Virus record (IMG/VR): IMGVR_UViG_2627854066_000007
DNA length: 51,816 bases
Source: a virus
Lineage: Duplodnaviria > Heunggongvirae > Uroviricota > Caudoviricetes
Strand: one strand, 5' to 3'
Below are positions 2,715-16,529 of the stretch, piece after piece; position 1 is the stretch's first letter, and every line of letters begins with the position of its first letter. The notes beneath the pieces are model-generated. The model made no database searches. It had not been told where the DNA came from and saw only the letters and a program-made list of their open reading frames with translations. A program made the translations under genes and the position numbers.

Positions 2715-3062
2715 TTACAGCATGGTCAGGGAGGTCAGCAGCCGCTTAGGCTGTCGCCAGTCGATACCTTCCAGCAGCATCGCCAGCTGCGCCTGTGTAA
2801 GGAACACTTTGCCATCACGGGCTGACGGCCAGGCGAAGCGCCCACGCTCCAGCCGTTTGGTCAGGAGGCACAGTCCGTCACCGGTGGACCACAGCAGTTT
2901 AACCTGACTGCCGCTGCGGCCCCGGAAAATGAAAACATGGCCGGACATGGGATCGTCTTTCAGCGCCGTCTGTACTTTCGCAGCCAGGCCGTTGAAGCCA
3001 TTTCTCATATCGGTGATACCGGCAACCAGCCAAATTTTGGTCCCGGAAGGTAAAGGGATCAT
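2715..3062 (-). CDS. tnpB: IS66-family accessory protein TnpB (Orf2)
   Basis: 115-aa ORF directly upstream of tnpC, overlapping tnpA stop by 4 nt; near-identical paralog at 38757-39104. Confidence 0.85.
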
Positions 3063-3460
3063 CGCTTCAGTTCCTGTATCAGCAGAGTCAGGAGCTTTTC
3101 GCTGACATTGCCATTGAAGCGGAGCGTCCCGTGCCGGAACGTTACCTCACAGCTGATACTGAGGGTTTCCGGGTCCTCTGCGAGCGATTCTGGCTGTTCG
3201 GCAGCTGCATCGAGAGTCACAGGAAGTAGCTGGGGGCTCTCTGAAGAAGGTAATAGCAGCTTTCCCTCGCGCCATTGTTGTCGCCATTTGAACAACAGAT
3301 TGGCGTTAATGCCATTTTCAAGAGCAAGTTTTGAGATGGATATCCCGGGTTCACAGGAGGCAGCAACGAGCTGCTGTTTAAATTCGGGAGGATAATTAGG
3401 GCAGCCTTTTCGCCTGCCGGGAGTCACATTTTTCTGCATATCTGACACTTTGGTTCCCAC
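3059..3460 (-). CDS. tnpA: IS66-family accessory protein TnpA (Orf1, HTH)
   Basis: 133-aa ORF, first gene of the IS66 three-gene operon; paralog at 39101-39505. Confidence 0.8.
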   Translation of the reverse strand: MGTKVSDMQKNVTPGRRKGCPNYPPEFKQQLVAASCEPGISISKLALENGINANLLFKWRQQWREGKLLLPSSESPQLLPVTLDAAAEQPESLAEDPETLSISCEVTFRHGTLRFNGNVSEKLLTLLIQELKR

Positions 3461-3531
3461 TACTTATTTGGTGGACACCACTTTGTCTAATTCATCAGAT
3501 TCTGACCAGACGGTTCAGGCTGTACGCTTAC

Positions 3532-3620
3532 CAATAGAAAAACACGAAAGAAGCACTAAGGATTTGGTGAAAGCAGCAGTATCGGGATGGCTGGGCACTG
3601 CGCTTGAATTTATGGATTTC
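3532..3620 (+). pseudogene. ydfJ: ydfJ 5' fragment (codons ~2-30) between IS66 copy 1 and attL
   Basis: Reading frame encodes PIEKHERSTKDLVKAAVSGWLGTALEF, which continues as MDFQLYSLGAALVFHEIFFPE at 50533 on the far side of the prophage. Confidence 0.65.
3605..3620. other. attL core (prophage left junction within ydfJ)
   Basis: TGAATTTATGGATTTC here versus TGAATTATGGATTTC at 50527-50541; the two copies bracket the prophage and both lie in the ydfJ reading frame. Confidence 0.5.
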
Positions 3621-3657
3621 AAGAGTCATACGTGTCAACTATTTGATAAATATTAAA

Positions 3658-4953
3658 TTAATTTTTCATTGCTTCGTTATGGGGCATGGTTGGGGCAAAC
3701 TCGCTTAACTGTGTATTTAACAAAGCTACCTGTGCATTATTGTTTTCAGACATCCATTTTCCGTATACCTGAAATACCATTTGCGCATCTGCATGGCCCA
3801 TCTGGTTTGCTATAAATGCCGGGTTAGCACCAGCTGTCAGCGACCAGCAGGCATAAGTATGTCTCGACTGATATGATTTTCGATGGCGGAGTCCGGCACG
3901 TTTTATCGCTGCGTCCCACATCTGCCTTATTGAGTCAACGGTAAAATGGTCACCATAATTTTTTACTCTCGCTGACACTTCAGGTTGAAAAACAAAGGTG
4001 CATTTTTGTTTTTCTGTTCTGCCATACTCTCTGAGGTGAACATCAATGATATGCTCTTTGCTCAGTCTCGTTAATGTCATCTGACTCCGGAGAGCGTCGA
4101 TTGCTGGCTTAATAAGATGAATGACCCGATTGGTTCCCGCCTGTGTTTTTGGTACCGTGAAACGGTCTTTTGCTAAATTTCTCCTGATCATCATTGTTCC
4201 ATTTTTCAGATCTATGTCCTCCCATCCAAGTGCACACAGCTCACCAGGGCGAACGCCAGTATAAACAGAAACACACCATAAATTTTTTGCTTGCTGATTT
4301 CTGCACGCATCGATAAGACGGATAAATTCCTCCCGCGAAAGAGGATCCGGAATGGTTCTTGATTCCTTTAATGGCGAGATCCCCTTAAACGGATTATCTG
4401 GCAGGTAACCGTTATCAACACCAAACTGGAACACGGCGTTAAGATTTGTCATGTAATTATTTACAGTTACAGCCGATCTCCCTGGTTGTGTAACAATATA
4501 GTTACTTTTGGGGATCTGGTATCCAGTCAGTAGCTCTTTACGAACCTCCAGTAATTTTTCTTTATTAATCGATGAGGCAAGATTTTTTTCACCGATTATG
4601 CTCAGGATATTTTTGATGACGGCACGGTATGTGTTGAGTGATGTTTTGGCGACTTCAGTTTCTTTCAGTGCCAGAAATTTTTCAGCCAGTTCTTTTATGG
4701 TTAAATCTTGTCGGGCCTCACCAAATTTTTCCAGATTGCGTGAGGAGGGAAACTGTTTTGCATAGTCGAAAACACCAGTTTTTATTGCGTAACAAACAGA
4801 GGAGCGTAGTTCACCTGCAACGCGCCTGTTTTTTGCTGTGTCAGGAACCCCCAGATTTTCCCTGACTCTTACGCCTTTATAAACAAACCAGATACGTAAT
4901 TTCCCTCCATGGTTTTCCACGCCTGTCGGATATTTCATTTCAACTTCTCTCAT
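3658..4953 (-). CDS. int: Phage integrase (tyrosine recombinase)
   Basis: 431-aa ORF adjacent to attL; C-terminal catalytic region with RxxR...HxxRH...Y-type motifs (RSQMTLTR, HTYACW, QMGHADAQMVFQVYGKW); true start may be the internal Met at residue 6. Confidence 0.9.
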   Translation of the reverse strand: MREVEMKYPTGVENHGGKLRIWFVYKGVRVRENLGVPDTAKNRRVAGELRSSVCYAIKTGVFDYAKQFPSSRNLEKFGEARQDLTIKELAEKFLALKETEVAKTSLNTYRAVIKNILSIIGEKNLASSINKEKLLEVRKELLTGYQIPKSNYIVTQPGRSAVTVNNYMTNLNAVFQFGVDNGYLPDNPFKGISPLKESRTIPDPLSREEFIRLIDACRNQQAKNLWCVSVYTGVRPGELCALGWEDIDLKNGTMMIRRNLAKDRFTVPKTQAGTNRVIHLIKPAIDALRSQMTLTRLSKEHIIDVHLREYGRTEKQKCTFVFQPEVSARVKNYGDHFTVDSIRQMWDAAIKRAGLRHRKSYQSRHTYACWSLTAGANPAFIANQMGHADAQMVFQVYGKWMSENNNAQVALLNTQLSEFAPTMPHNEAMKN

Positions 4954-4972
4954 TAGTTAGTGTGGCTTTTAG

Positions 4973-5224
4973 TCAAGTAAGATGACGTCTTGGTCTCGCT
5001 GATGCCTGGCGCTCAATCCAGCGATCAATTTCTTCCAGGTTGTAAAAGCATGGACTGTTATCCCATGGCATACTGTCATGAGCGACATGCTTATATTCCC
5101 TTCCTTCCATAAACGATTTTTCCCGGGCCTTTTTTAACGTACCTTTTTTTATTCCTTTCAGCGCAATTAACTGCTCTTCGGATACCCATTTGCCGGGAGA
5201 GACAATCATGATTACTTCGCTCAT
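4973..5224 (-). CDS. xis: Excisionase-like small protein
   Basis: 83-aa basic ORF immediately upstream of int on the same strand; assignment is by position and size. Confidence 0.55.
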   Translation of the reverse strand: MSEVIMIVSPGKWVSEEQLIALKGIKKGTLKKAREKSFMEGREYKHVAHDSMPWDNSPCFYNLEEIDRWIERQASARPRRHLT

Positions 5225-5296
5225 CGATTTCTTTATCTCTTACATCAGACGAGCGCCGGTTGCAGAATACCAGTCACAACCGGCGACAGTTGAACA

Positions 5297-7768
5297 TTAA
5301 GAATCAGCCTGACTCGGGATCAGTTTTTGCCAGATAACTGAAACGTATTTTGCCTGGTAACGGGCGTCATCAAGTGCATTATGGCGCTCACCTTCGAATG
5401 GAATAGCCGTTCTGGCATCGAAGTCTATGGCTTTCCCCAGCTCAACGATTGTGCGTACATCGCGATCGTTGTAGTAACGCCACGGGCAGGGGATCCCCTG
5501 CCGTTCGTATGAACGGCGCAAAATCGTGTTGTCGAAGTTGGCTCCATTTCCCCAAACCTGAACAAAAAATTCACTGGAGTTTTCGTCGATAAATTCCCGC
5601 AATTGTAACAGTGCATCATCTAACGGGATTTCATCGGTCATAATGGCAGATTGCGCTTCGCGTGATTGCTTAAGCCACCATTTAATGGTGTCCCGATCAA
5701 TGACTCCGCCAGCAGTTTCCAGATCGATAGTCTTACTAAATTCCGGTCCCATATCTCCGGTTTGCGGATCGAAAAATATTGCACCTATTGAGATGATCGG
5801 GGCATCAGGATTTTTTCCCATGGTTTCAAGGTCGATCATTAGATGGTCACACGTCCTGCTGGTGGATGTGATTTCGTGATGACCGTTCACCTTAATTGAG
5901 TGATCTGCCGTCTCGCCAGTTTCATTATCGCTATTGTGATGCTGATTGCCGCCAGTGTTCTCCTTGTGTGGATGTTCAGCGCCTTCCATTTCCTCCGGAT
6001 CATCTTCCTGAACTTCAACCTGATACTCTTCATCGAATGTTTCTTGGTATGTTGCGTCGCCCATCACCGCGCCACAATCAGGGCAGTTGCCGCCGCCGGT
6101 CTGACCGCAGGCGGTGCAGACTTTTTCCACTTCCTGTTGCGCCACTGGTTCAGGCTGTTTCGTTTCTGGCTCGTTTTGTAACGCATTTGTGCTGTTTTGT
6201 TCCGCTTTTTGGTAGTTCCGTTCCGATTCATGCTGGTTCTGGTTCACAGAATCGCGGGTCTGGATCCCCTTAACCCATTTCGGATCATTCGGGTCACTAA
6301 TCCCTTCAACAAATTCACCACGTGATGCAGCAAGCAACTTATCGGCGTCAGGCTGGCTGATATTGGCTGCCTGCATAATTTTGTTTACTTCGTCAGCGGT
6401 AACTTTTATCGGCTCTGGTTGTTCTGAATCTTCAGCGGTATCTACATTTTGCGGTAAGCCCGTGTATGTGCCATTTTTTCGGGCAAAATATTCTTCTTTT
6501 GTGATTTCAGTGGCGCCAGCAGCCAGTGCCTTATCCAGACCAGAAAGTTTGTTTGCGCGACCGTATTTTTCTCCGTCCTTATCTGCGAAGAGGAAATAGA
6601 ACGGCCCCTCACGCTCTACAGATGGTTCAGCTTCCGGCGCGGTTTCATTTTTTGGGATATCAGATACCTCAGTTTCCACTGCATCAGTTTGTGTTTCTGA
6701 TGACTGGAGAACATCAACAGTGCCCAGGTCTGTTTCTTCATTCTCAAACACGCCCTTTGTCGTCAGGTATTCGCAGATATATTTGTTCAGTGCTATGGGA
6801 TCTTTGTGAATGTCGATCGGACGCTCACGGACAAGGCCAAAAATAGTCTGGCGGTCGTAGCGAAGGGCATCAGGCTGTTTGCGCATTGATGCCGAGATAC
6901 GCTTCCAGTCTTCGCGGTCGTTGTCGATAACTTCTTTTTTTGCCCAGCGATGGATGCTGCCGTCAATGTTTCCGGCATCCACATCACCAGGCCAGAGAGC
7001 GTAGGCCAGTTCGTCATCCAGTGTTTTCCATGTCTGCTTGTATTCGCGATGAATGGCAGCAATGACCGGGCTGATTTTTCCTGTTGAATTTTCAGTGTAC
7101 TGTTGATTGGCTCTGGCGCGGGCGAGATCAACAACAGACGTGTATTTTCCGGTTTCCTTGCGTTCACCTTCGCGACGTTTTTTCCAGATGCGCATCTCTG
7201 CCTGAATTTCGGGCCATTTAGCACCAGGAATACATTTATGCTTAACCCACCCAATGGCGTGCAACTTAAGCTCCGGATACATGGCGTTAACTTCTGGCAT
7301 TTTCATCAACGCTTCAACGATATGTCCGTCGAATGTTGCCATGTCTTCCTGCAACAATTCCTGTGCGCTAATAACCATATCAACGGTGATGTTTTCACAT
7401 GTGTCGAACTTAACCATGACAGCGTTCTGTACTTCAGGGGCCAGCTTGTCAAAAGTGACGTTCATCGGATCGGATTCAGTCTCAACCGGGACAAAAGAAG
7501 CAGACTCCTCATCCCAGCGGTTTTCCTGCATATATTCAGCATCCCATGAATCGAGGGCAGGGCGGGGTATGCCAGGTTTATCCTCGCAGACAATAAATTT
7601 ATAAGCGCAGTCCTGAGCAGCCGGATAATGTTCCAGGAACTGCCAGTGAAATTTTGCTCGAGCACGGCGTTCGTCGCCAGCTTCAATGGCTGTGGCTACA
7701 GCCACAGCGCCTTCTTCCCTTGTTGCCAGTTCGTCAGGAATAGCGGCGCAAATAAAGACTTTACTCAT
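5297..7768 (-). CDS. Phage exonuclease with C-terminal DEDDh-type 3'-5' exonuclease domain
   Basis: 823-aa ORF; C-terminal ~200 aa carry DLET, NGANFD and HNALDDA motifs consistent with the DnaQ-like DEDDh fold; a long acidic low-complexity linker precedes the domain. Confidence 0.75.
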   Translation of the reverse strand: MSKVFICAAIPDELATREEGAVAVATAIEAGDERRARAKFHWQFLEHYPAAQDCAYKFIVCEDKPGIPRPALDSWDAEYMQENRWDEESASFVPVETESDPMNVTFDKLAPEVQNAVMVKFDTCENITVDMVISAQELLQEDMATFDGHIVEALMKMPEVNAMYPELKLHAIGWVKHKCIPGAKWPEIQAEMRIWKKRREGERKETGKYTSVVDLARARANQQYTENSTGKISPVIAAIHREYKQTWKTLDDELAYALWPGDVDAGNIDGSIHRWAKKEVIDNDREDWKRISASMRKQPDALRYDRQTIFGLVRERPIDIHKDPIALNKYICEYLTTKGVFENEETDLGTVDVLQSSETQTDAVETEVSDIPKNETAPEAEPSVEREGPFYFLFADKDGEKYGRANKLSGLDKALAAGATEITKEEYFARKNGTYTGLPQNVDTAEDSEQPEPIKVTADEVNKIMQAANISQPDADKLLAASRGEFVEGISDPNDPKWVKGIQTRDSVNQNQHESERNYQKAEQNSTNALQNEPETKQPEPVAQQEVEKVCTACGQTGGGNCPDCGAVMGDATYQETFDEEYQVEVQEDDPEEMEGAEHPHKENTGGNQHHNSDNETGETADHSIKVNGHHEITSTSRTCDHLMIDLETMGKNPDAPIISIGAIFFDPQTGDMGPEFSKTIDLETAGGVIDRDTIKWWLKQSREAQSAIMTDEIPLDDALLQLREFIDENSSEFFVQVWGNGANFDNTILRRSYERQGIPCPWRYYNDRDVRTIVELGKAIDFDARTAIPFEGERHNALDDARYQAKYVSVIWQKLIPSQADS

Positions 7769-7861
7769 TTTGTTTTAACCTCATGACAGATTTAAGGATG
7801 AACAAATCCCTGCCATTGCTGGCATATAAGAATGAAACCGGATATTTATTACGGAACTGTT

Positions 7862-8053
7862 TTAAAGACCTGCCGGGATTTCGATATTATCCTGGTGAAT
7901 AACTTTATCGACCGGGTAACAGTTACCGGGAATTTTCTGTTCGGTTGCTGCTGTCATACACTCCTGCATTGTCCTGTGAACACTGACTGCAATATCAACT
8001 GGCTCTCCGGAAACAAGAAAAACTGTCAGAACAAGCGCAAATGCTGAATTCAT
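7862..8053 (-). CDS. ydfD: YdfD-like small membrane/lysis protein
   Basis: 63-aa ORF from an internal Met (MNSAFALVLTVFLVSGEPV...) with an N-terminal hydrophobic segment; overlaps dicB stop. Confidence 0.55.
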   Translation of the reverse strand: MNSAFALVLTVFLVSGEPVDIAVSVHRTMQECMTAATEQKIPGNCYPVDKVIHQDNIEIPAGL

Positions 8054-8238
8054 TGTGCACATCCTTTTGGCATCAGACGTAAACGAGCCAGCATTGAAAC
8101 AATGCATATTTTATTTAATAGCTCCCGTTCTTGTTTTCTCTTGTTAATGGCATCTTCAGTAAATACAGGGTTACTGATAGTGACACCAATTTCAAAACAA
8201 CCTTCAGACGTATTAACGTTTGGTAATAACGTTTTCAT
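8050..8238 (-). CDS. dicB: Cell division inhibitor DicB
   Basis: 62-aa ORF MKTLLPNVNTSEGCFEIGVTISNPVFTEDAINKRKQERELLNKICIVSMLARLRLMPKGCAQ, matching DicB as I recall it, ~175 nt downstream of dicF. Confidence 0.7.
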   Translation of the reverse strand: MKTLLPNVNTSEGCFEIGVTISNPVFTEDAINKRKQERELLNKICIVSMLARLRLMPKGCAQ

Positions 8239-8411
8239 TATCGCGTCCTCAACAATGAATTTTGTGATGCAATGCCTGGTGCCTCCAGGTGACGTTAACC
8301 AGTTAACAATTAACGCCGGATACAGAGAATCCACCCATAACACTGTTTTTGGTTTTAACTGTTCCGCGTGCGCTTAGCCGCATTCACCGCATCACAAAAT
8401 TCACTTTAAAA

Positions 8412-8466
8412 ACGGCGGCAGAGCAGTCACGGAGTAAAACTGATACCGCCAAACGTCACCAGAAAA
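8412..8466 (-). ncRNA. dicF: DicF small regulatory RNA (ftsZ-targeting)
   Basis: Reverse complement reads TTTTCTGGTGACGTTTGGCGGTATCAGTTTTACTCCGTGACTGCTCTGCCGCCG followed by a T-run, matching the DicF sequence as I recall it and ending in its terminator hairpin. Confidence 0.75.
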
Positions 8467-8740
8467 TTGATAACAGAGGGCGTTGCAGCGGGGTTGTCAC
8501 TTAAGCGTATGGTCAACCTGACAACTCGGTGTCCTCAACGGGGAAGGAATAACCCTGCCATACTTACCGCCGCGCCATTTCGCGGGTTGCCACAACCGGA
8601 AGCGCACGGTCGAATTAAATTTAACGACACCGTACAGTGAGACGAACTTCGCCGTGCGCTTTCGTGTTGTGTGCCTGCTTTTAACCACGTCAGGCGAGGT
8701 GGTATCCTTCTTATTCCGAATAACCAAGAAGGAAATCTAT

Positions 8741-9439: not shown

Positions 9440-9552
9440 GCTGACCTCATTTCCCCTTAACGCCGGGGTCGCGGAACTGTTTGCTGAGAACACCGTGCGG
9501 TGTCTTGATGGAAAGTAATTTAGAATAACCTAACATGAGAGGCAAGTGTTTT

Positions 9553-9572
9553 TTGTTAGATTGATCTAACAA
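9553..9572. promoter_or_regulatory. Inverted repeat TTGTTAGAT-NN-ATCTAACAA, candidate DicA/DicC operator
   Basis: 9-bp arms with 2-bp centre, seen directly; the half-site TTAGA/TCTAA recurs in the dicA-dicC intergenic region. Confidence 0.35.
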
Positions 9573-9607
9573 AAAGAGTGGGCGCAACTAATCACTTGAA
9601 AAGAATG

Positions 9608-10015
9608 TTATTTTATTGATTTATTTTTACGCGCTTTAAGCATTTCTTCGAAGAGTTTGTTGAAGTTTTCTACTCTTGCGCGCATTTCAGACAGCAAGGC
9701 TTCCTGCTCGGAAGATGGAAGAGCATCGAATAATTCGATCAATTCTTTGTGGTTGGGAGTTAGCTCTGTTTCCACATGAAGTTCTTGTGCAGGCACTGGT
9801 GCCTTGTCTTCGTCACCAAACATTAGCCATGTAGGTGAGCACTTCAGAGCATCCGCTAAAGCAAACAATCGTTTTCCGACTGGCTGGGTTTCGTCTCTTT
9901 CCCATTGTGAAATTGTGACGTGAGCAACTCCAGCGAGGCGCGCAGCTTCTCGTTGTGTTAAGCGTAATTCTTTTCGTCGCGCCAGAACTCGCTGGCCTAG
10001 GGTTCTTGTATCCAT
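9608..10015 (-). CDS. dicA: HTH-XRE repressor DicA (CI-like immunity repressor)
   Basis: 135-aa ORF with N-terminal helix-turn-helix (LTQREAARLAGVAHVTISQWERDE), divergent from the Cro-like dicC. Confidence 0.9.
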   Translation of the reverse strand: MDTRTLGQRVLARRKELRLTQREAARLAGVAHVTISQWERDETQPVGKRLFALADALKCSPTWLMFGDEDKAPVPAQELHVETELTPNHKELIELFDALPSSEQEALLSEMRARVENFNKLFEEMLKARKNKSIK

Positions 10016-10092
10016 AGTTAGGTAATTCTAATTTTTCTTGACTTAGGTATCCCGCGCACAATAATGTTAGAAAAGTCTAACAAGAGGGGGCT
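10016..10092. promoter_or_regulatory. Divergent dicA/dicC promoter-operator region
   Basis: 77-bp intergenic region between divergent repressor genes, containing TTAGGTAATTCTAA and GTTAGAAAAGTCTAAC inverted repeats. Confidence 0.5.
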
Positions 10093-10323
10093 TTGATGCT
10101 TAAAGTTGACGCAATTACTTTTTTTGGCAGCAAAACAAAGCTTGCCAATGCCGCAGGAGTGAGACTGGCAAGTGTTGCTGCTTGGGGGATACTGGTTCCT
10201 GAAGGTCGCGCGATGCGTCTACAGGAGGCATCTGGCGGGGAGCTTCAGTATGATCCCAAAGTTTATGACGAATATCGTAAGACGAAGCGGGCGGGGCGGT
10301 TGAACAATGAAAATCACTCCTGA
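10093..10323 (+). CDS. dicC: Cro-like regulator DicC
   Basis: 76-aa ORF transcribed divergently from dicA, matching DicC in size and position. Confidence 0.85.
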   Translation: MMLKVDAITFFGSKTKLANAAGVRLASVAAWGILVPEGRAMRLQEASGGELQYDPKVYDEYRKTKRAGRLNNENHS

Positions 10324-10828
10324 ACAGGCTCGTGAGGCTCTGGATGCCTGGATATGTCGACCAGGAATGACACAGGAGCAGGCGACGATATTAATCACTG
10401 AAGCATTCTGGGCTTTGAAAGAGCGCCCGAACATCGATGTTCAGCGTGTCACATATGAAGGTGGCGCGGTTGATCAGCGAGCGCTTAGCGTTAATCGAGT
10501 GAAGATATTCGAACGCTGGAAGGCTATCGACACCAGGGATAAGCGTGAAAAGTTCACAGCGCTAGTGCCTGCAATTATGGAGGCTATCCGGATTAGTGAT
10601 TTCAGGTTGTATCGTGAGATCAGTGATGGAAAAAGTATTACGTACATGATCGCCGGGTTAAATAAAGAATATGGCGATGTGGTGGAATCCGGACTGCTTT
10701 TTGCAGATCCTGCCGTTGTAGATCGTGAAACTGACGAACTTATAGAAAAAGCAATTGCTTTCAAGCTTGCGTATCGACAGCAATACCAACAAAAAGCTGG
10801 ATGGAATTATGAGTCTTCTTTTTGCTGA
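10307..10828 (+). CDS. Hypothetical phage early protein (173 aa)
   Basis: ORF directly downstream of dicC with good codon usage, overlapping the next gene; no family recognised from sequence. Confidence 0.6.
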   Translation: MKITPEQAREALDAWICRPGMTQEQATILITEAFWALKERPNIDVQRVTYEGGAVDQRALSVNRVKIFERWKAIDTRDKREKFTALVPAIMEAIRISDFRLYREISDGKSITYMIAGLNKEYGDVVESGLLFADPAVVDRETDELIEKAIAFKLAYRQQYQQKAGWNYESSFC

Positions 10829-11774
10829 ACGCCCACTGGTTATAAACACGCAGCTGGCAATGAAAATCGGCTTAAACGAAGCCATTGTTTTGCAACAACT
10901 GCACTACTGGTTGAGAGATACCAACTCCGGTATGGAATGTGATGGTGTTCGCTGGATTTATAACACAACGGAACAATGGCTGGAACAGTTCCCATTCTGG
11001 TCAGAGTCAACGTTAAAGCGCGCGTTTGCAAGTCTGAAAACGCTGGGGCTTTTGCGTTGTGAAAAGCTCAATAAATCAAAGCGCGATATGACCAATTTCT
11101 ACACGATCAACTATGGGAGCGAGCTTTTAGATGGTGGCAAATTGAACGAATCCATCGGTTCAAAATGCGCCGCTCCATCAGGTCAAAATGACACGATGGA
11201 AGAGGTCAAAATGAAACGCTCCATTGGTTCAAAACGACCCAATGTCATCGGGTCAAAATGGCCTGATGATCTTACAGAGAATACAACAGAGATTACTACA
11301 GAGAATAAAAACACTTTTCGTCCGGAAGCTTCGCAACCGGACCCGCAGACGACTGAACAGGATTTTTTAACCCGGAACCCCGACGCGGTTGTGTTTAGTG
11401 TGAAAAAACGCCAGTGGGGTAGCAGGGAGGATCTGGCGTGTGCGCAGTGGATTTGGGGGCGGATCGTGAACCTTTACGAACAGGCTGCCAGCGACGATGG
11501 AGAGATCATGCGACCAAAAGAGCCTAACTGGACAGCCTGGGCCAATGACGTGCGCACAATGCGGATGCTGGATGGCAGAAGCCACAGACAAATTTGCGAA
11601 ATGTTTGGTCGGGTACAGCGGGATCCATTCTGGGTAAAAAACATCATGAGCCCGTCAAAACTCCGCGAAAAATGGGACGAACTGGTCATCCGCCTGGGAC
11701 GTTCACCTGTACAGCGTTGTGTGAATCATATTTCTGAACCGGATACAGAAATTCCGCCTGGTTTCAGGGGATAA
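10809..11774 (+). CDS. Phage replication initiator (lambda O-like) containing origin iterons
   Basis: 321-aa ORF from MSLLFAERPLV (ATG overlaps upstream gene); internal tandem repeats of GGTTCAAAATG-type sequence followed by an AT-rich stretch, the arrangement seen for ori-lambda inside gene O. Confidence 0.7.
   Translation: MSLLFAERPLVINTQLAMKIGLNEAIVLQQLHYWLRDTNSGMECDGVRWIYNTTEQWLEQFPFWSESTLKRAFASLKTLGLLRCEKLNKSKRDMTNFYTINYGSELLDGGKLNESIGSKCAAPSGQNDTMEEVKMKRSIGSKRPNVIGSKWPDDLTENTTEITTENKNTFRPEASQPDPQTTEQDFLTRNPDAVVFSVKKRQWGSREDLACAQWIWGRIVNLYEQAASDDGEIMRPKEPNWTAWANDVRTMRMLDGRSHRQICEMFGRVQRDPFWVKNIMSPSKLREKWDELVIRLGRSPVQRCVNHISEPDTEIPPGFRG
11150..11265. repeat. Iteron-like direct repeats (putative phage replication origin)
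   Basis: Five copies of GGTTCAAAATG / GGTCAAAATGA / GGTTCAAAACG / GGGTCAAAATGG spaced at ~20-25 bp, encoding repeated IGSK peptide units, followed by AT-rich sequence at 11275-11330. Confidence 0.6.
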
Positions 11775-11814
11775 GTGTTGATTTCAGGTCATGAGATAAT
11801 TTTAAGGGGGACTT

Positions 11815-12216
11815 GTGGCAAAAGTTTTTACACAAGAAGAGCGGGAAAAAATTAAAGGGCAGGTTGTTGAACTCGTACGCCGGAGTGGGCGTGAGACGTT
11901 ACGGCAACTGGAAGTCAAGACAGGTGCGACAAGATATCTGATGAGCGTTCTCGCAAGAGAGCTGGTTGCCAGCGGCGATGTATACAACTCTGGTTACGGG
12001 TTATTCCCGTCTGAACAGGCGCGTAAGGACTGGCAAAATGCCCGTAAAAAGCTCTCAAGGGCAAAGCTGAAGAAACCATCTGCGGTTGATCCGGACCTTA
12101 TCTGGTCATTACCTGACGGAGAAATACGTCGCTACGACAGGCGTCAGAACATAATCTGCCGCGAGTGCCGGAAGAGTGAAGTTATGCAGCGCATACTGGC
12201 ATTTTATCAGGGATAA
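11815..12216 (+). CDS. Hypothetical phage protein (133 aa, GTG start)
   Basis: ORF downstream of the replication gene, basic, with a CRECRK motif; no family recognised. Confidence 0.5.
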   Translation: MAKVFTQEEREKIKGQVVELVRRSGRETLRQLEVKTGATRYLMSVLARELVASGDVYNSGYGLFPSEQARKDWQNARKKLSRAKLKKPSAVDPDLIWSLPDGEIRRYDRRQNIICRECRKSEVMQRILAFYQG

Positions 12217-12749
12217 TGTTAGATATTTTAGACGTTACTAGATTAAAAAGCATTAGTTCAGGAGTGAATTGACATTCTCATTTTTCATGGCACAGGGTAG
12301 ATCTGGCGTGGTTGTCCGCTTTGTGCCAACAGCGGACGTTACTAACGAAACTGTGAGTTAAAAACGGGAGCTGGTCACCTCCATCCCGCGAAATGGAATT
12401 CAAAAATGCCCTCATGTACGGTACTTCTAGTCTGATGTGAGCATTTTCGTGGATTTTTTCGAGCCACTCCAACGAATGATTACATTCAGTTTCGGGCACT
12501 AAAACGTCATAAATCCGCAAGTTGAGGAGTAGCGATCAGCCAATTGGTTAAAAAACAGCTTTAATTCCCTTTTTCAAGCAGGCTCCTTGTCGCACGTCTG
12601 GTGCATCCAATTCATTTCAGTTACCCTGATGCCATACTGGCACGGACTAGCTCTCTTAATTGGCGCTGGTTTGTTAACCTTGTCCGCTGTCGGGTCTTTG
12701 TAAGTTGTAATTCCTAAACTAGCATAATTTTATTATAAGGCCTCTTACT

Positions 12750-13775
12750 ATGCACATTTTATCTGTTTCAAAAAAGGAAGTTGGAAGAGCTGGGGATAGA
12801 TTAGTTTCTCAGTTTGGTACAGGTGAAAAATATAAAGAGGAAGATGTACAAATTCTTCATGAGTGGAGGATGTTGCATTTATATCCTTTAAGTAAAATAC
12901 AATTTTATATGGAAAGAGAGGCTATTTCCTTAAACAAAAATGCGTTACTATCCTCTAGAATTAAGAGGATGCCTTCCATTGTTACTAAGCTTTCTAGATT
13001 TCCTGATATGAAGTTAAATAAGATGCAGGATCTTGGTGGGTGCCGGGCTATTTTAAATAATCTGGATCAAGTGTATGATTTAGTTAATAAAATAAAATCA
13101 TCTAAATTCTCACATGAACTAGTTAGAATGGATGATTACATGATAGACGTGAAAGATTCTGGTTATAGAAGCTTTCATATGGTCTATTCATTCCAAAATA
13201 AAAAATTTCCATCTTTAAATGGGTTGCGCATTGAAATGCAAATAAGAACAGCTATTCAACATAGCTGGGCTACAGCAGTTGAAATGGTTGGTTTGTTTCG
13301 AAAGGAATCATTGAAATCTGGTTTTGGTGATGCAAGATGGCTTAGGTTTTTTGAATTGGTATCAGAGCTTTTTTATAAACTTGAGTATGAAAAAGAACCA
13401 TCTGGGAGTTATATAAAAATATCAGAAGAATTAAGTTATTTATCCGTCGAGTTGAATGTTTTCGATATATTAGCTGCTTACAATGCCGTAGTTAGCCATA
13501 TTGAGGGTAGCAAAAAATATGATAAAGGACTTTGCATAATTGTTGTTGATACCATAAAGCGGAATATAAATATAAAGAGCTTCGAAAATCACAATCATGC
13601 GAAGGCGGCAGAAGCTTATGTCGAGTCTGAAAAATACTGCGCGGAAAATAAAGGCTGTGAAGTGGCTATGGTTTCTGTTAGTTCAATTAGTGAATTAAAA
13701 AATGCATATCCTGCTTACTTTTTAGATACGAAAACTTTTTTAAATTATCTCAGTAGGTATGTTTTTATAAAATAA
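12750..13775 (+). CDS. RelA/SpoT-like nucleotidyltransferase (small alarmone synthetase-like; candidate toxSAS/CapRel-type)
   Basis: 341-aa ORF carrying RSH synthetase motifs in order: R70-x-K72-x3-S76-x3-K80, D94-LGGCR99, G138-YRSFH143, E162-MQIRTAIQHSWA174; gene is strongly AT-rich versus flanks; ~120-aa C-terminal extension beyond the catalytic core. Confidence 0.8.
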   Translation: MHILSVSKKEVGRAGDRLVSQFGTGEKYKEEDVQILHEWRMLHLYPLSKIQFYMEREAISLNKNALLSSRIKRMPSIVTKLSRFPDMKLNKMQDLGGCRAILNNLDQVYDLVNKIKSSKFSHELVRMDDYMIDVKDSGYRSFHMVYSFQNKKFPSLNGLRIEMQIRTAIQHSWATAVEMVGLFRKESLKSGFGDARWLRFFELVSELFYKLEYEKEPSGSYIKISEELSYLSVELNVFDILAAYNAVVSHIEGSKKYDKGLCIIVVDTIKRNINIKSFENHNHAKAAEAYVESEKYCAENKGCEVAMVSVSSISELKNAYPAYFLDTKTFLNYLSRYVFIK

Positions 13776-14208
13776 AAAATGTTATCTGGAGTGGTCTGAA
13801 TTCTACTAACTTAGTTTTTTCAGACCGCTTCTGACCACAATGGCCTGTGAGGTTCTGCTGCTAGTCAACATAAAATAACAAAGCCGGCAGGTGGTGGTTG
13901 TTGTAAAGTTATTCAATGACATTCATGGAGGCTTAAGCGAATTATTTGTCCCTGGTCGGTATGGTGGCAACAGCTTGTTGCGAGAATTTGGCTAATTTGG
14001 ACTGACTTCCGCTCCTTGCTCAAAGCGGACTAGAAGGTTAGCTTGTGTCGGACTTTGCGTATTAAAAGAAGTGCTGGTGGTGACTAGTGGTTGAGCCCCA
14101 TTTCCACAGAAAAAATCAGAGAAACTATACCCAATAGTTGTATTGAATCACTGACGAGACAGCCTCATATTCATCAGGACTGGTGTACGTCCAATACAGG
14201 AGGTTGTG

Positions 14209-14298
14209 GTGCTGGTTCTCAAATGTGCGCTGGCTATTACGGCTGTAATGGCGATTTATTGTCTTGCTATTGTTCTTATGGATCGCCTTTCTGACTGA
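14209..14298 (+). CDS. Candidate 29-aa hydrophobic peptide (type I toxin-like)
   Basis: AGGAGG at 14198-14203, 5 nt before GTG; product MLVLKCALAITAVMAIYCLAIVLMDRLSD is a single predicted transmembrane helix with a charged tail. Confidence 0.3.
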   Translation: MLVLKCALAITAVMAIYCLAIVLMDRLSD

Positions 14299-14509
14299 TT
14301 TCATATTGGCGAGGTAAAGGTAGTTAAGTAGAATGGCTGCGGGTGCTTGAGGCTATCTGCCTCGGGCATGAACACCAAAGGCAGATAGAGAAAAGCCCCA
14401 GTTAACATTACGCGTCCTGCAAGACGCTTAACATTAATCTGAGGCCAATTTCATGCTAGACACATGTAGGTTAGCCTCTTACGTGCCGGAAGGCAAGGAG
14501 AAGCAGGCT

Positions 14510-14665
14510 ATGAAGCAGCAAAAGGCGATGTTAATCGCCCTGATCGTCATCTGTTTAACCGTCATAGTGACGGCACTGGTAACGAGGAAAGACCTCTGCG
14601 AGGTACGAATCCGAACCGGCCAGACGGAGGTCGCTGTCTTCACAGCTTACGAACCTGAGGAGTAA
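14510..14665 (+). CDS. hok: Hok-family type I toxin
   Basis: 51-aa ORF MKQQKAMLIALIVICLTVIVTALVTRKDLCEVRIRTGQTEVAVFTAYEPEE, a canonical Hok/Gef sequence; in-frame upstream extension from 14453; structured leader upstream. Confidence 0.85.
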   Translation: MKQQKAMLIALIVICLTVIVTALVTRKDLCEVRIRTGQTEVAVFTAYEPEE

Positions 14666-14733
14666 GAGACCCGGCGAGGGAGAAATCCCTCGCCACCTCT
14701 GATGTGGCAGGCATCCTCAACGCACCCGCACTT

Positions 14734-14760
14734 AACCCGCTTCGGCGGGTTTTTGTTTTT
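14734..14760 (+). terminator. Rho-independent terminator downstream of hok
   Basis: GC-rich hairpin AACCCGCTTCGGCGGGTT followed by TTTTGTTTTT. Confidence 0.5.
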
Positions 14761-14881
14761 ATTTTCAACGCGTTTGAAGTTCTGGACGGTGCCGGAATAG
14801 AATCAAAAATACTTAAGTAGCGCGCAGGGATAAGAGGGATGGTCCCTTAAAGGGGAGAGCTAATTATCCGGAAGGATTCTG

Positions 14882-15133
14882 ATGATGAACATCGAAGAAC
14901 TGCGTAAAATTTTTTGTGAAGATGGCCTCTATGCTGTGTGCGTTGAAAATGGAAATCTTGTTAGTCATTACCGCATTATGTGTTTGCGAAAGAATGGGGC
15001 TGCGTTAATTAATTTTGTGGATGGTCGAGTGACAGACGGATTTATCTTGCGCGAAGGTGAGTTTGTCACTTCATTACAGGCACTGAAAGAGATCGGAATA
15101 AAAGCAGGCTTTTCAGCTTTTGCAGAAGAATAA
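14882..15133 (+). CDS. Rem-like small phage protein
   Basis: 83-aa ORF in the position and size of rem in K-12 Qin (between hok and ydfU); name by synteny only. Confidence 0.45.
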   Translation: MMNIEELRKIFCEDGLYAVCVENGNLVSHYRIMCLRKNGAALINFVDGRVTDGFILREGEFVTSLQALKEIGIKAGFSAFAEE

Positions 15134-15199
15134 ACTCATCTACAATCTTGCGCGGGGCTGAACTCCCGCTGAGTAACACCGTGCCACCGGAGAAAACCG

Positions 15200-15478
15200 A
15201 TGGCACGCAACGTAAAATATTACAATTCTGATAATTCGCCCGTTCTTGCCTGCACGCACGGGCGGTATTCTCACGCATTCAAGTCTGAATGGTTCCAGCA
15301 CCCTCCATGCACTGCAGAACAGGCCGAATGGCTGATTCATTCTTACTGCAGGCGCGGGTTCGAGGTTAAGAAAGCTCTCAGTCTCGACTATCGGCACTGG
15401 ATAATCTCTGTCAGGCTGCCTTATTCCGAACGCCCACCACGTGCGTCCCGCACTTTCCAGCAACGGATCTGGAGGTAA
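15200..15478 (+). CDS. Hypothetical protein (92 aa)
   Basis: ORF ending 2 nt before the ydfU start; no family recognised. Confidence 0.4.
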   Translation: MARNVKYYNSDNSPVLACTHGRYSHAFKSEWFQHPPCTAEQAEWLIHSYCRRGFEVKKALSLDYRHWIISVRLPYSERPPRASRTFQQRIWR

Positions 15479-15479
15479 C

Positions 15480-16529
15480 GTGCGGGTATTACTTAGACCT
15501 GTTCTGGTGCCTGAGCTTGGGCTGGTGGTCCTTAAGCCGGGCCGTGAATCCATACAGATATTTCATAATCCTCGAGTGCTGGTGGAACCGGAACCAAAAA
15601 GCATGCGTAATCTGCCATCCGGAGTCGTTCCTGCCGTTCGCCAGCCGCTGGCGGAAGACAAAACATTGCTGCCGTTTTTTAGTAACGAACGGGTGATTCG
15701 TGCTGCTGGCGGCGTTGGCGCATTGTCTGACTGGCTATTACGTCATATTACATCCTGCCAGTGGCCTAATGGCGATTACCATCACACTGAAACAGTCATT
15801 CACCGTTATGGTACCGGCGCAATGGTGTTGTGCTGGCACTGCGACAACCAACTGCGTGACCAGACATCGGAATCACTGGAGCTGCTTGCTCAACAAAATC
15901 TGACAGCATGGGTGATTGACGTCATCCGTCACGCAATAAGCGGTACGCAGGAGCGGGAATTATCTTTGGCTGAATTATCCTGGTGGGCGGTCTGCAATCA
16001 GGTGGTGGATGCACTACCTGAGGCTGTATCGCGTCGTTCGCTGGGATTACCAGCGGAAAAAATCTGCTCGGTGTACCGCGAAAGCGACATCGTACCGGGA
16101 GAGCAGACCGCCACCAGCATATTGAAACAACGCACAAAAAATCTTGCACCGTTGCCTTACGCCCACCAGCAACAAAAACCACCACAGGAAAAGACGGTGG
16201 TAAGCATCAACGTTGATCCAGAGTCTCCGGAATCTTTCATGAAGCTGCCTAAACGTCGCCGCTGGGTTAAGGAGAAATACACTCGTTGGGTTAAGACACA
16301 GCCGTGTGCTTGCTGCGGTATGCCAGCCGACGATCCGCATCATCTGATTGGTCACGGGCAGGGCGGAATGGGAACAAAAGCACATGATCTCTTTGTGTTG
16401 CCTTTGTGCAGAAAGCATCACAACGAGCTGCATACGGATACAGTGGCATTTGAAGAGAAGTATGGCTCCCAACTGGAGCTGATATTTCGTTTTATCGATC
16501 GCGCGCTGGCAACTGGCGTACTGGCGTAA
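15480..16529 (+). CDS. ydfU: YdfU-like DUF968 protein with C-terminal HNH-like Cys/His motif
   Basis: GTG start 5 nt after GGAGG gives 349 aa; C-terminus has CACCG...DPHH...CRKHHNELH. Confidence 0.7.
   Translation: MRVLLRPVLVPELGLVVLKPGRESIQIFHNPRVLVEPEPKSMRNLPSGVVPAVRQPLAEDKTLLPFFSNERVIRAAGGVGALSDWLLRHITSCQWPNGDYHHTETVIHRYGTGAMVLCWHCDNQLRDQTSESLELLAQQNLTAWVIDVIRHAISGTQERELSLAELSWWAVCNQVVDALPEAVSRRSLGLPAEKICSVYRESDIVPGEQTATSILKQRTKNLAPLPYAHQQQKPPQEKTVVSINVDPESPESFMKLPKRRRWVKEKYTRWVKTQPCACCGMPADDPHHLIGHGQGGMGTKAHDLFVLPLCRKHHNELHTDTVAFEEKYGSQLELIFRFIDRALATGVLA

Follow-up and report, generated by a model that had tools for sequence, protein, structure and literature searches.

The 533-base gap between the end of a DUF977 ORF (12216) and the start of a RelA/SpoT ORF (12750) includes the left-hand limit of a slot for exchangeable cargos, which lies between the DUF977 gene and sok/hokD and is delimited by two copies of a 24-nt palindrome (Table 1). 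The window, i.e. the whole stretch of 51,816 nt that was analysed, is a Qin/Rac-like lambdoid prophage of E. coli. On the left, the gap follows genes for a cI-like repressor, a Cro/DicC-like protein, a YdaT-like protein, a replication-type protein and the DUF977 protein; on the right come the RelA/SpoT gene, a second gap, sok/hokD, rem, ydfU and a Q-like antiterminator gene. The gap is not a single element but consists of four parts, namely prophage backbone, palindrome, end module and cargo-specific DNA. Most probably, it combines the left border of a cargo slot of Qin/Rac-like prophages with the untranslated upstream region of the present cargo, a predicted CapRel-type gene. An earlier, sequence-only reading had described the interval as a non-coding gap. 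Its non-coding nature held up, but its composite make-up had been overlooked, the left quarter being prophage backbone that ends in the palindrome.

Table 1. Features of the gap and of the adjoining cargo slot (positions in the window)
Feature	Position	Strand	Remark
DUF977 gene	11815-12216		last gene before the gap
Prophage backbone spacer after the DUF977 gene	12217-12313		common to 508 E. coli genomes
Minus-strand ORF	12278-12520	-	TTG start, no Shine-Dalgarno sequence
Left boundary palindrome GTCCGCTTTGTGCCAACAGCGGAC	12314-12337	+	24 nt, 7-bp arms, 10-nt centre
End module GTTACTAACGAAACTGTGAGTTAAAAACGGGAGCTGGTCA	12338-12377	+	common to several unrelated cargos
Cargo-specific non-coding DNA	12378-12697		found only with this CapRel-type gene
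Candidate sigma-70 promoter TTGTAA-N19-CATAAT (or TTGTAA-N16-TAGCAT)	12698-12728	+	best plus-strand match of the gap
Predicted CapRel-type fused toxin-antitoxin gene (cargo)	12750-13775	+	Pfam, PADLOC and structure matches
Non-coding 3' part of the cargo	13776-14006		homology to L006 reaches 13992, to L092 14004
Right boundary palindrome TTCCGCT-CCTTGCTCAA-AGCGGAC	14007-14030	+	second pattern match of the window

The slot became apparent from a survey of 80 IMG/VR loci fetched through the DUF977 protein, 35 of which contain both boundaries. The cargos of these 35 loci fall into 15 variants, 994-5373 nt long, whose genes may point either way; a search of IMG/VR for an empty slot found none. Among 13 cargo variants compared, similarity to the window stops 23-31 nt past the start of the left palindrome and is restored 12-26 nt ahead of the end of the right one. 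The sequences of related prophages, with their 15 or more different cargos, break inside or at the palindromes. Other cargos that occupy the slot in E. coli are a 340-aa hypothetical protein, a DUF4209 protein, and AbiH with a partner, and the genomes with alternative cargos show the shared left flank, other genes, and then the shared right flank and hokD. Accordingly distributed are the two sides of the left boundary: the first ~121-126 nt of the gap are present in 508 of 5426 E. coli genomes, at 81-100% identity and with any cargo (megablast), and the whole gap in only 41 of the 5426. The homology to the prophage flank and that to the cargo unit share just the 24 nt at 12314-12337. The homology to two other copies of the unit, on a Raoultella plasmid (L006) and on a viral contig (L092), begins at the first arm of the left palindrome, and on the right the prophage flank restarts at 14008-14018. 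The backbone spacer also contains a perfect -35 hexamer, TTGACA, followed after 18 nt by a poor -10, CAGGGT (12269-12298), which is kept in related prophages.

The left palindrome reads GTCCGCT-TTGTGCCAAC-AGCGGAC and would fold as single-stranded DNA with an energy of -8.4 kcal/mol (z = -3.0). The palindrome pattern occurs twice in the window, against 0.14 copies expected, and of the five exact arm heptamers in the whole 51.8 kb, four fall in the 1.7-kb stretch 12314-14030. Both palindromes lack a following T-run and so do not qualify as ordinary terminators; the scan for intrinsic terminators listed neither. In the related prophages, the outer parts are constant, i.e. the left arm with TTGTGCCA on one side and (T)CGCTCAA with the right arm AGCGGAC on the other. 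The inner arms vary with the cargo: AGCGGAC, AGCAGAC, AGCGGAA or AGAGGAC on the left, and GTCCGCT, GTCTGCT, TTCCGCT or TTCCTCT on the right. In some loci the two cargo-side arms are complementary to each other, as in L058 (AGCAGAC/GTCTGCT), L019, L036 (15 of 16 positions) and the tandem pair of cargos in L050. When all cargos are taken together, however, the ends of the same cargo match at 11.0 of 16 positions and those of different cargos at 10.3 (permutation p = 0.048), and given this marginal difference we do not claim complementarity of cargo ends as a general rule. Complementarity extending further from end to end was also looked for; it is clear in L036 and L019, and weak or absent in most other cargos.

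Next to the left palindrome, the end module reads GTTACTAAC...GGGAGCTGGTCA. The region 12318-12375 matches IncN plasmids of Klebsiella at 88%, where it stands beside a type ISP restriction-modification gene. Among 199 distinct flanks of palindromes, 22 contain a GGGAGCAGGTCA-like 12-mer, against 0.27 expected from shuffles; it is always on the cargo side and mostly 26-31 nt from the palindrome (17 nt in one case). The palindrome and the GGGAGCAGGTCA module together form a unit of ~66 nt that brackets some cargos in inverted orientation. These inverted units stand ~4.4 standard deviations above shuffles in L036 and L019, but in most other cargos they do not. No target-site duplication was seen at the cargo junctions. 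The outer 12-mer TGACCTGCTCCC bears what we take to be a resemblance to the ends of IS3-family elements (IS407 group), and GTGCCAA presumably resembles the Rci sfx spacer. A promoter function of the end module was considered as well; the match is good in L052 (TTGCTT-17-TTTAAT) and poor in the window, and we do not claim it.

The palindrome is not confined to this slot. Right-type and left-type copies placed back to back with an 18-nt spacer, CTTCAGCTCAGTnAnnT, were found in 65 IMG/VR contigs (L215-L279), in 52 variants. This paired junction of ~66 nt is invariant from loop to loop, and its outer arms vary with the adjacent genes. The 94 ORFs that flank such junctions include the defence genes PD-T7-1, PD-T7-5, PDC-S31, AriA, Dsr1, Lamassu LmuB, Septu PtuA, Tmn, Thoeris ThsB, a retron reverse transcriptase and CapRel. 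Further palindrome pairs are present at 7338-7403 of L046, 8452-8517 of L006 and 6295-6360 of L092. In E. coli, a 110-nt junction query matched at least 1112 of the 5426 genomes, at a median of one place per genome and a maximum of four. These junctions are never annotated and lie in accessory DNA only; the matches include genomic islands of Nissle 1917 and an island with a type I restriction-modification system and DarTG. Outside phages, the palindrome occurs on IncN and IncF plasmids as well as in genomic islands.

Beyond E. coli, we scanned one genome per species with the palindrome pattern. The pattern has 14 fixed bases for 596 Gb of sequence, and about half of the matches read are due to chance. 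Because the pattern is too short, only matches whose unconstrained arm is complementary were used, i.e. 39 of the 88 read; among them are matches in Serratia, Pantoea, Buttiauxella, and Alpha- and Betaproteobacteria. In Pantoea sp. AS142 (L127, reverse-strand 2931-6581), genes for SIR2_2 and ApeA/HEPN proteins are located between two left-type palindromes, and this pair is likely to be a two-gene defence system on a chromosome other than that of E. coli. Metagenome-assembled genomes of Alpha- and Betaproteobacteria (L126, L159, L098) and of a Gammaproteobacterium (L151) contain palindromes with the arms GTCCGCT/AGCGGAC and the loops TTGTGCCAAT, TTGGGTCAAA or AAGTGCCAAA. There are up to ten such copies per 8 kb, often in pairs 46 or 91-101 nt apart, between ordinary genes, for instance those for ABC substrate-binding proteins, a methyltransferase and a symporter, and they look like a REP-type family. 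An Rfam scan of five loci with multiple palindromes returned nothing relevant.

As for the mechanism of exchange, the palindromes and the flanking modules of ~40 nt probably serve as short conserved linkers, with recombination between them swapping cargos among prophages, plasmids and genomic islands. The most likely agent would be homologous recombination, by phage functions of the RecET/Red type or by those of the host. Acting on conserved stretches of ~25-70 nt, homologous recombination would be the simplest explanation for the hybrid palindromes, in which the outer arm would be that of the resident and the inner arm that of the incoming cargo. Alternatively, the palindromes might be substrates of a dedicated site-specific recombinase or of a transposase acting in trans, and the cargos non-autonomous cassettes akin to those of integrons or to passenger MITEs. 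In favour of such an enzyme, inverted arms of 7-8 bp surround an asymmetric centre of 8-10 bp in a lox-like shape, the two boundary copies are mutually inverted, with a right loop that resembles the reverse complement of the left one at 6 of 10 positions, and the ~66-nt units with the GGGAGCAGGTCA module bracket cargos in inverted orientation. Moreover, some cargo-side arms complement each other rather than the phage arms (L058, L036 and the tandem cargos of L050), and one and the same cargo is found within non-homologous flanks. Against this possibility, no integrase or transposase family is present among the 25 most frequent Pfam families of the 94 flanking ORFs, neither target-site duplications nor empty sites nor integron-type GTTRRRY cores were observed, and the statistic for end complementarity is marginal. 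Simple excision between the palindromes is not expected either, as the left and right centres differ. This analysis identified no recombination intermediate or enzyme, and we consider a dedicated enzyme unlikely. Homologous recombination between linkers remains the reading that we favour. Similarly doubtful is the more ambitious proposal that the palindrome, its inverted partner and the ~40-nt modules constitute an undescribed, widespread cassette-junction element, which would convey single defence genes among prophage slots, plasmids and genomic islands of Enterobacteria through dedicated palindrome-recognising recombination and have relatives across the Proteobacteria.

Several known systems share some of these properties. 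The PeSLs (promoter-early stem-loops) of T4-type phages are mobile regulatory cassettes with stem-loop motifs that flank non-essential genes in hyperplastic regions; breakpoints of insertions, deletions and replacements coincide with the motifs, and recombination between motifs was proposed (Arbiol et al. 2010, PMC2839356). Each PeSL is a unit of ~50 bp in which a strong sigma-70 promoter is joined to a functional terminator, and mini-circles were shown (PMC2839356). The units described here are similar in that gene replacements break at them. In contrast with PeSLs, the palindrome lacks a T-run and no convincing promoter follows it; it also belongs to temperate phages, plasmids and genomic islands, not to phages of the T4 type. 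With integron cassettes, the slot shares promoter-less or single-gene cargos, often for defence, between imperfect palindromes that keep their symmetry, and arrays occur. Unlike in integrons, the IntI family is missing from the 25 most frequent Pfam families mentioned above, and no attI is found beside the arrays. Sites of the attC type have a length of ~57-141 nt. The palindrome differs from them by its 24 nt, by breaks in its centre instead of at one outer end, by following sequences (GTTACTA, ATTATAG, ATCGAAT and others) that do not fit GTTRRRY, and by the absence of RYYYAAC core sites.

A short intergenic palindrome, either single or in inverted pairs of fixed spacing, is also reminiscent of REP/BIME elements and of MITEs with passenger genes, all the more so as some Proteobacteria have several copies per genome and as the ~66-nt units bracket cargos in inverted orientation like passenger-gene MITEs. 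However, the median E. coli genome has a single copy and not hundreds, with all copies confined to accessory DNA; no target duplication was seen, nor was a RAYT or any other transposase linked to the palindrome. Finally, according to the modular theory of lambdoid phages, short conserved linker sequences are present between functional modules at the points of exchange. The palindrome likewise is a short conserved sequence at an exchange boundary between modules, but unlike those linkers it has a defined palindromic form and is also found on IncN/IncF plasmids and in genomic islands. Searches of the searchable literature by keyword and by exact sequence returned no description of the 24-nt palindrome.

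As the promoter and leader of a defence gene, the gap is ordinary. What gives the gap its value is that a defence-gene slot has a precise and recognisable limit in it; the palindrome there seems to be a hitherto undescribed element at the junctions of defence-gene cassettes. The result bears on the movement of single anti-phage genes among hotspots: the same palindrome is found at the breakpoints of at least 15 cargos in one slot, and between defence genes in many other phages, islands and plasmids. Should it act as a recombination linker or as the substrate of an enzyme, it would provide a sequence tag for new defence genes, a testable mechanism of exchange and practical cassette limits for cloning.

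The present cargo is a predicted CapRel-type fused toxSAS gene, as judged from the synthetase domain and the C-terminal antitoxin-like domain of its product. The 341-aa protein matches Pfam RelA_SpoT over residues 69-175 (E = 4e-18) and the PADLOC candidate defence family PDC-S33 over residues 4-338 (E = 5e-119), and phmmer aligns its residues 6-338 with the CapRel SJ46 structures 7ZTB and 9ERV (E = 2.6e-34). Like CapRel SJ46 (PDB 7ZTB), it is encoded by a single gene in a prophage, and the similarity is full-length, including the C-terminal antitoxin-like part. It belongs to another sequence lineage and is not a close relative, with 341 aa compared with ~372. The fusion of toxin and antitoxin makes a separate antitoxin gene unneeded. 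The ORF has a G+C content of ~32%, versus 45-55% in the surrounding prophage (12700-13800). In a 2026 preprint, AT-rich immunity genes are reported to be silenced by H-NS (10.64898/2026.09.05.749240), and the AT-rich CapRel ORF of the window is of the gene type treated there.

The DNA from the palindrome to the ATG has moved together with the CapRel-type gene into a plasmid and another phage. The segment 12378-12697 is present in 41 E. coli genomes, in the Raoultella plasmid (~90-93% identity) and in the viral contig L092 (93%). In the former, an IncFII plasmid of Raoultella terrigena (NZ_CP062917), 12313-13992 is found at ~93% identity between unrelated flanks, and in L092 the CapRel unit is in a third context, unlike that of the prophage or the plasmid. 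In both, the right-hand part of the cargo is longer than in the window. Next to its pifC, the plasmid has an array (5001-8520) in which the CapRel unit is followed by palindromes at 6856, 8452 and 8494 between hypothetical genes, and its region upstream of CapRel has a 17-nt insertion that repeats a CTCTTAAT motif.

The promoter candidate of Table 1 is the likely promoter of the cargo. The sequence-only reading had pointed to TTGTAA and CATAAT as a sigma-70 promoter, and the hexamers are indeed present, at 12698-12703 and 12723-12728 (52-47 and 27-22 nt before the ATG). The pair with the 19-nt spacer scores 9 of 12, the best plus-strand value in the gap, and TTGTAA-N16-TAGCAT 8 of 12; a weak ribosome-binding site, AAGG, is located at 12737-12740. 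Both hexamers are identical in the three variants, i.e. the window, the Raoultella plasmid and L092, and they sit where the G+C content drops from ~45% to 32%. On sequence alone the hexamers are not above chance, as a scan of 11700-14700 with spacers of 16-18 nt gave 5 promoter-like sites versus 5.8 expected from shuffles, a scan from which TTGTAA/CATAAT is absent because of its 19-nt spacer. It is nevertheless plausible as a predicted promoter, the only reasonable one for the CapRel-type gene. Published CapRel homologues are active when cloned with 100-200 bp of native upstream DNA (PMC9712102), and the placement of the candidate would be consistent with such constructs. In the lysogen, CapRel would then be transcribed from its own weak candidate promoter, as are those homologues from their 100-200 bp. 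No support was found for an operator, which had also been suggested for the gap.

The ~320 nt between the end module and the promoter candidate are probably spacer or leftover DNA with no detectable sequence-specific function. The available copies are 90-100% identical, too similar for selection or RNA structure to be judged, and 12378-12697 may have a function after all. Another reading, which we deem rather improbable, is that this segment is a fossil and not a leader, namely the decayed remains of an earlier cargo, with the AT-rich CapRel unit inserted or substituted later. The fall in G+C content near 12700 would fit, as would a third exact GTCCGCT heptamer immediately 5' of the promoter candidate (12682-12688), a degenerate copy of the palindrome half 3' of the gene (GACCGCTTCTGACCACAA, beginning at 13823) and the cargos of the plasmid and L092 that reach further right. 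Yet the heptamer is not conserved in the other two variants, which have GCCCGCT and GCTCGCT, and it is for this reason that we rank the older cargo as a rival rather than as a result; moreover, one extra heptamer per 1.9 kb is not improbable. No remnant of a protein is detectable, the longest ORF being without family, and, at the DNA level, the segment resembles none of the other cargos in more than 250 loci. More generally, comparison of 12338-12749 and 13776-14006 with all other fetched cargos gave no similarity beyond the 40-nt end module. Spacer or leftover DNA stays the description that we would apply to these ~320 nt.

A structured RNA had been proposed for the gap too, and it might act as a cis-regulatory leader or as a small RNA on either strand, controlling the toxic CapRel gene. 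The upstream region is indeed long, as are those of other cargos (190-470 nt ahead of the first gene), the inverted repeat at 12403-12447 is followed by T-rich sequence on the minus strand, and that strand also has a match to an extended -10 promoter (12476-12506). However, cmscan of 11000-15500 at E values up to 1 gave no Rfam match inside 12217-12749, and the folding z-scores of the whole gap are only -2.25 and -2.21 for the two strands. The repeat at 12403-12447 is the sole local one, and in the Raoultella copy two base pairs of its stem are lost with no compensating change; covariation in the gap is not measurable, as there are only three variants with 90-100% identity. A promoter at 12698-12728 would moreover give a leader of only ~15 nt, and CapRel, as a fused toxin-antitoxin, needs no separate antitoxin (PMC9712102). 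We therefore regard an RNA of this kind as very unlikely, and an untranslated upstream region of the cargo is the reading we retain.

The gap was also considered devoid of genes by the earlier reading, in agreement with our results. At least 29 complete E. coli genomes, mostly of avian isolates, contain it at 100% identity, and RefSeq has no annotation in it in the identical genomes among the matches listed; its ORFs are broken by indels or evolve neutrally, and it belongs to no RNA family. That the minus-strand ORF at 12278-12520 might be a real gene for a small protein such as a regulator or an antitoxin hardly deserves consideration: it is open in all three variants, but its TTG start has no ribosome-binding site, seven of the eight differences between the window and the Raoultella copy alter the amino acid, Pfam does not assign it to a family, a search of 5.8 billion proteins found only two ORF calls, both near-identical, and its C-terminus depends on the context since the last 14 codons extend across the palindrome and into DNA that differs between contexts. 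Upstream of a 65%-identical CapRel in L093, a 66-aa minus-strand ORF resembled it but is unrelated in sequence. Insertions of 17 nt in one of the other variants and of 1 nt in the second disrupt the two plus-strand ORFs of 38 codons each. As for a remnant of relBE, which had been envisaged in the gap, blastn of 9500-16500 against 1643000-1649500 of K-12 aligns only 10003-10586 and 14496-16500, which speaks against it; the homology to the Qin prophage of K-12 restarts only inside hokD, at 14496. In K-12 Qin, relBE abuts hokD, unlike in the window.

On the other side of the cargo gene, a second non-coding stretch of ~565 nt (13776-14340) comprises the right palindrome and the conserved flank towards sok/hok, and it is in part the sok/hok leader. 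It includes an inverted repeat, GGTCTGAA...TTCAGACC, at ~13787-13825, just 3' of the CapRel gene. Downstream of hokD (14510-14665), a match to isrK at 14674-14755 (25.7 bits, E = 0.013) is below the gathering score and is probably only the hok terminator, as a G+C-rich stem and a T-run are present at its end. Rfam sok, the only real hit of the scan of 11000-15500, matches 14341-14515 (117 bits, E = 4e-27), upstream of and overlapping the start of hokD, and this strong match indicates that the type I toxin-antitoxin system is intact beside the cargo slot.
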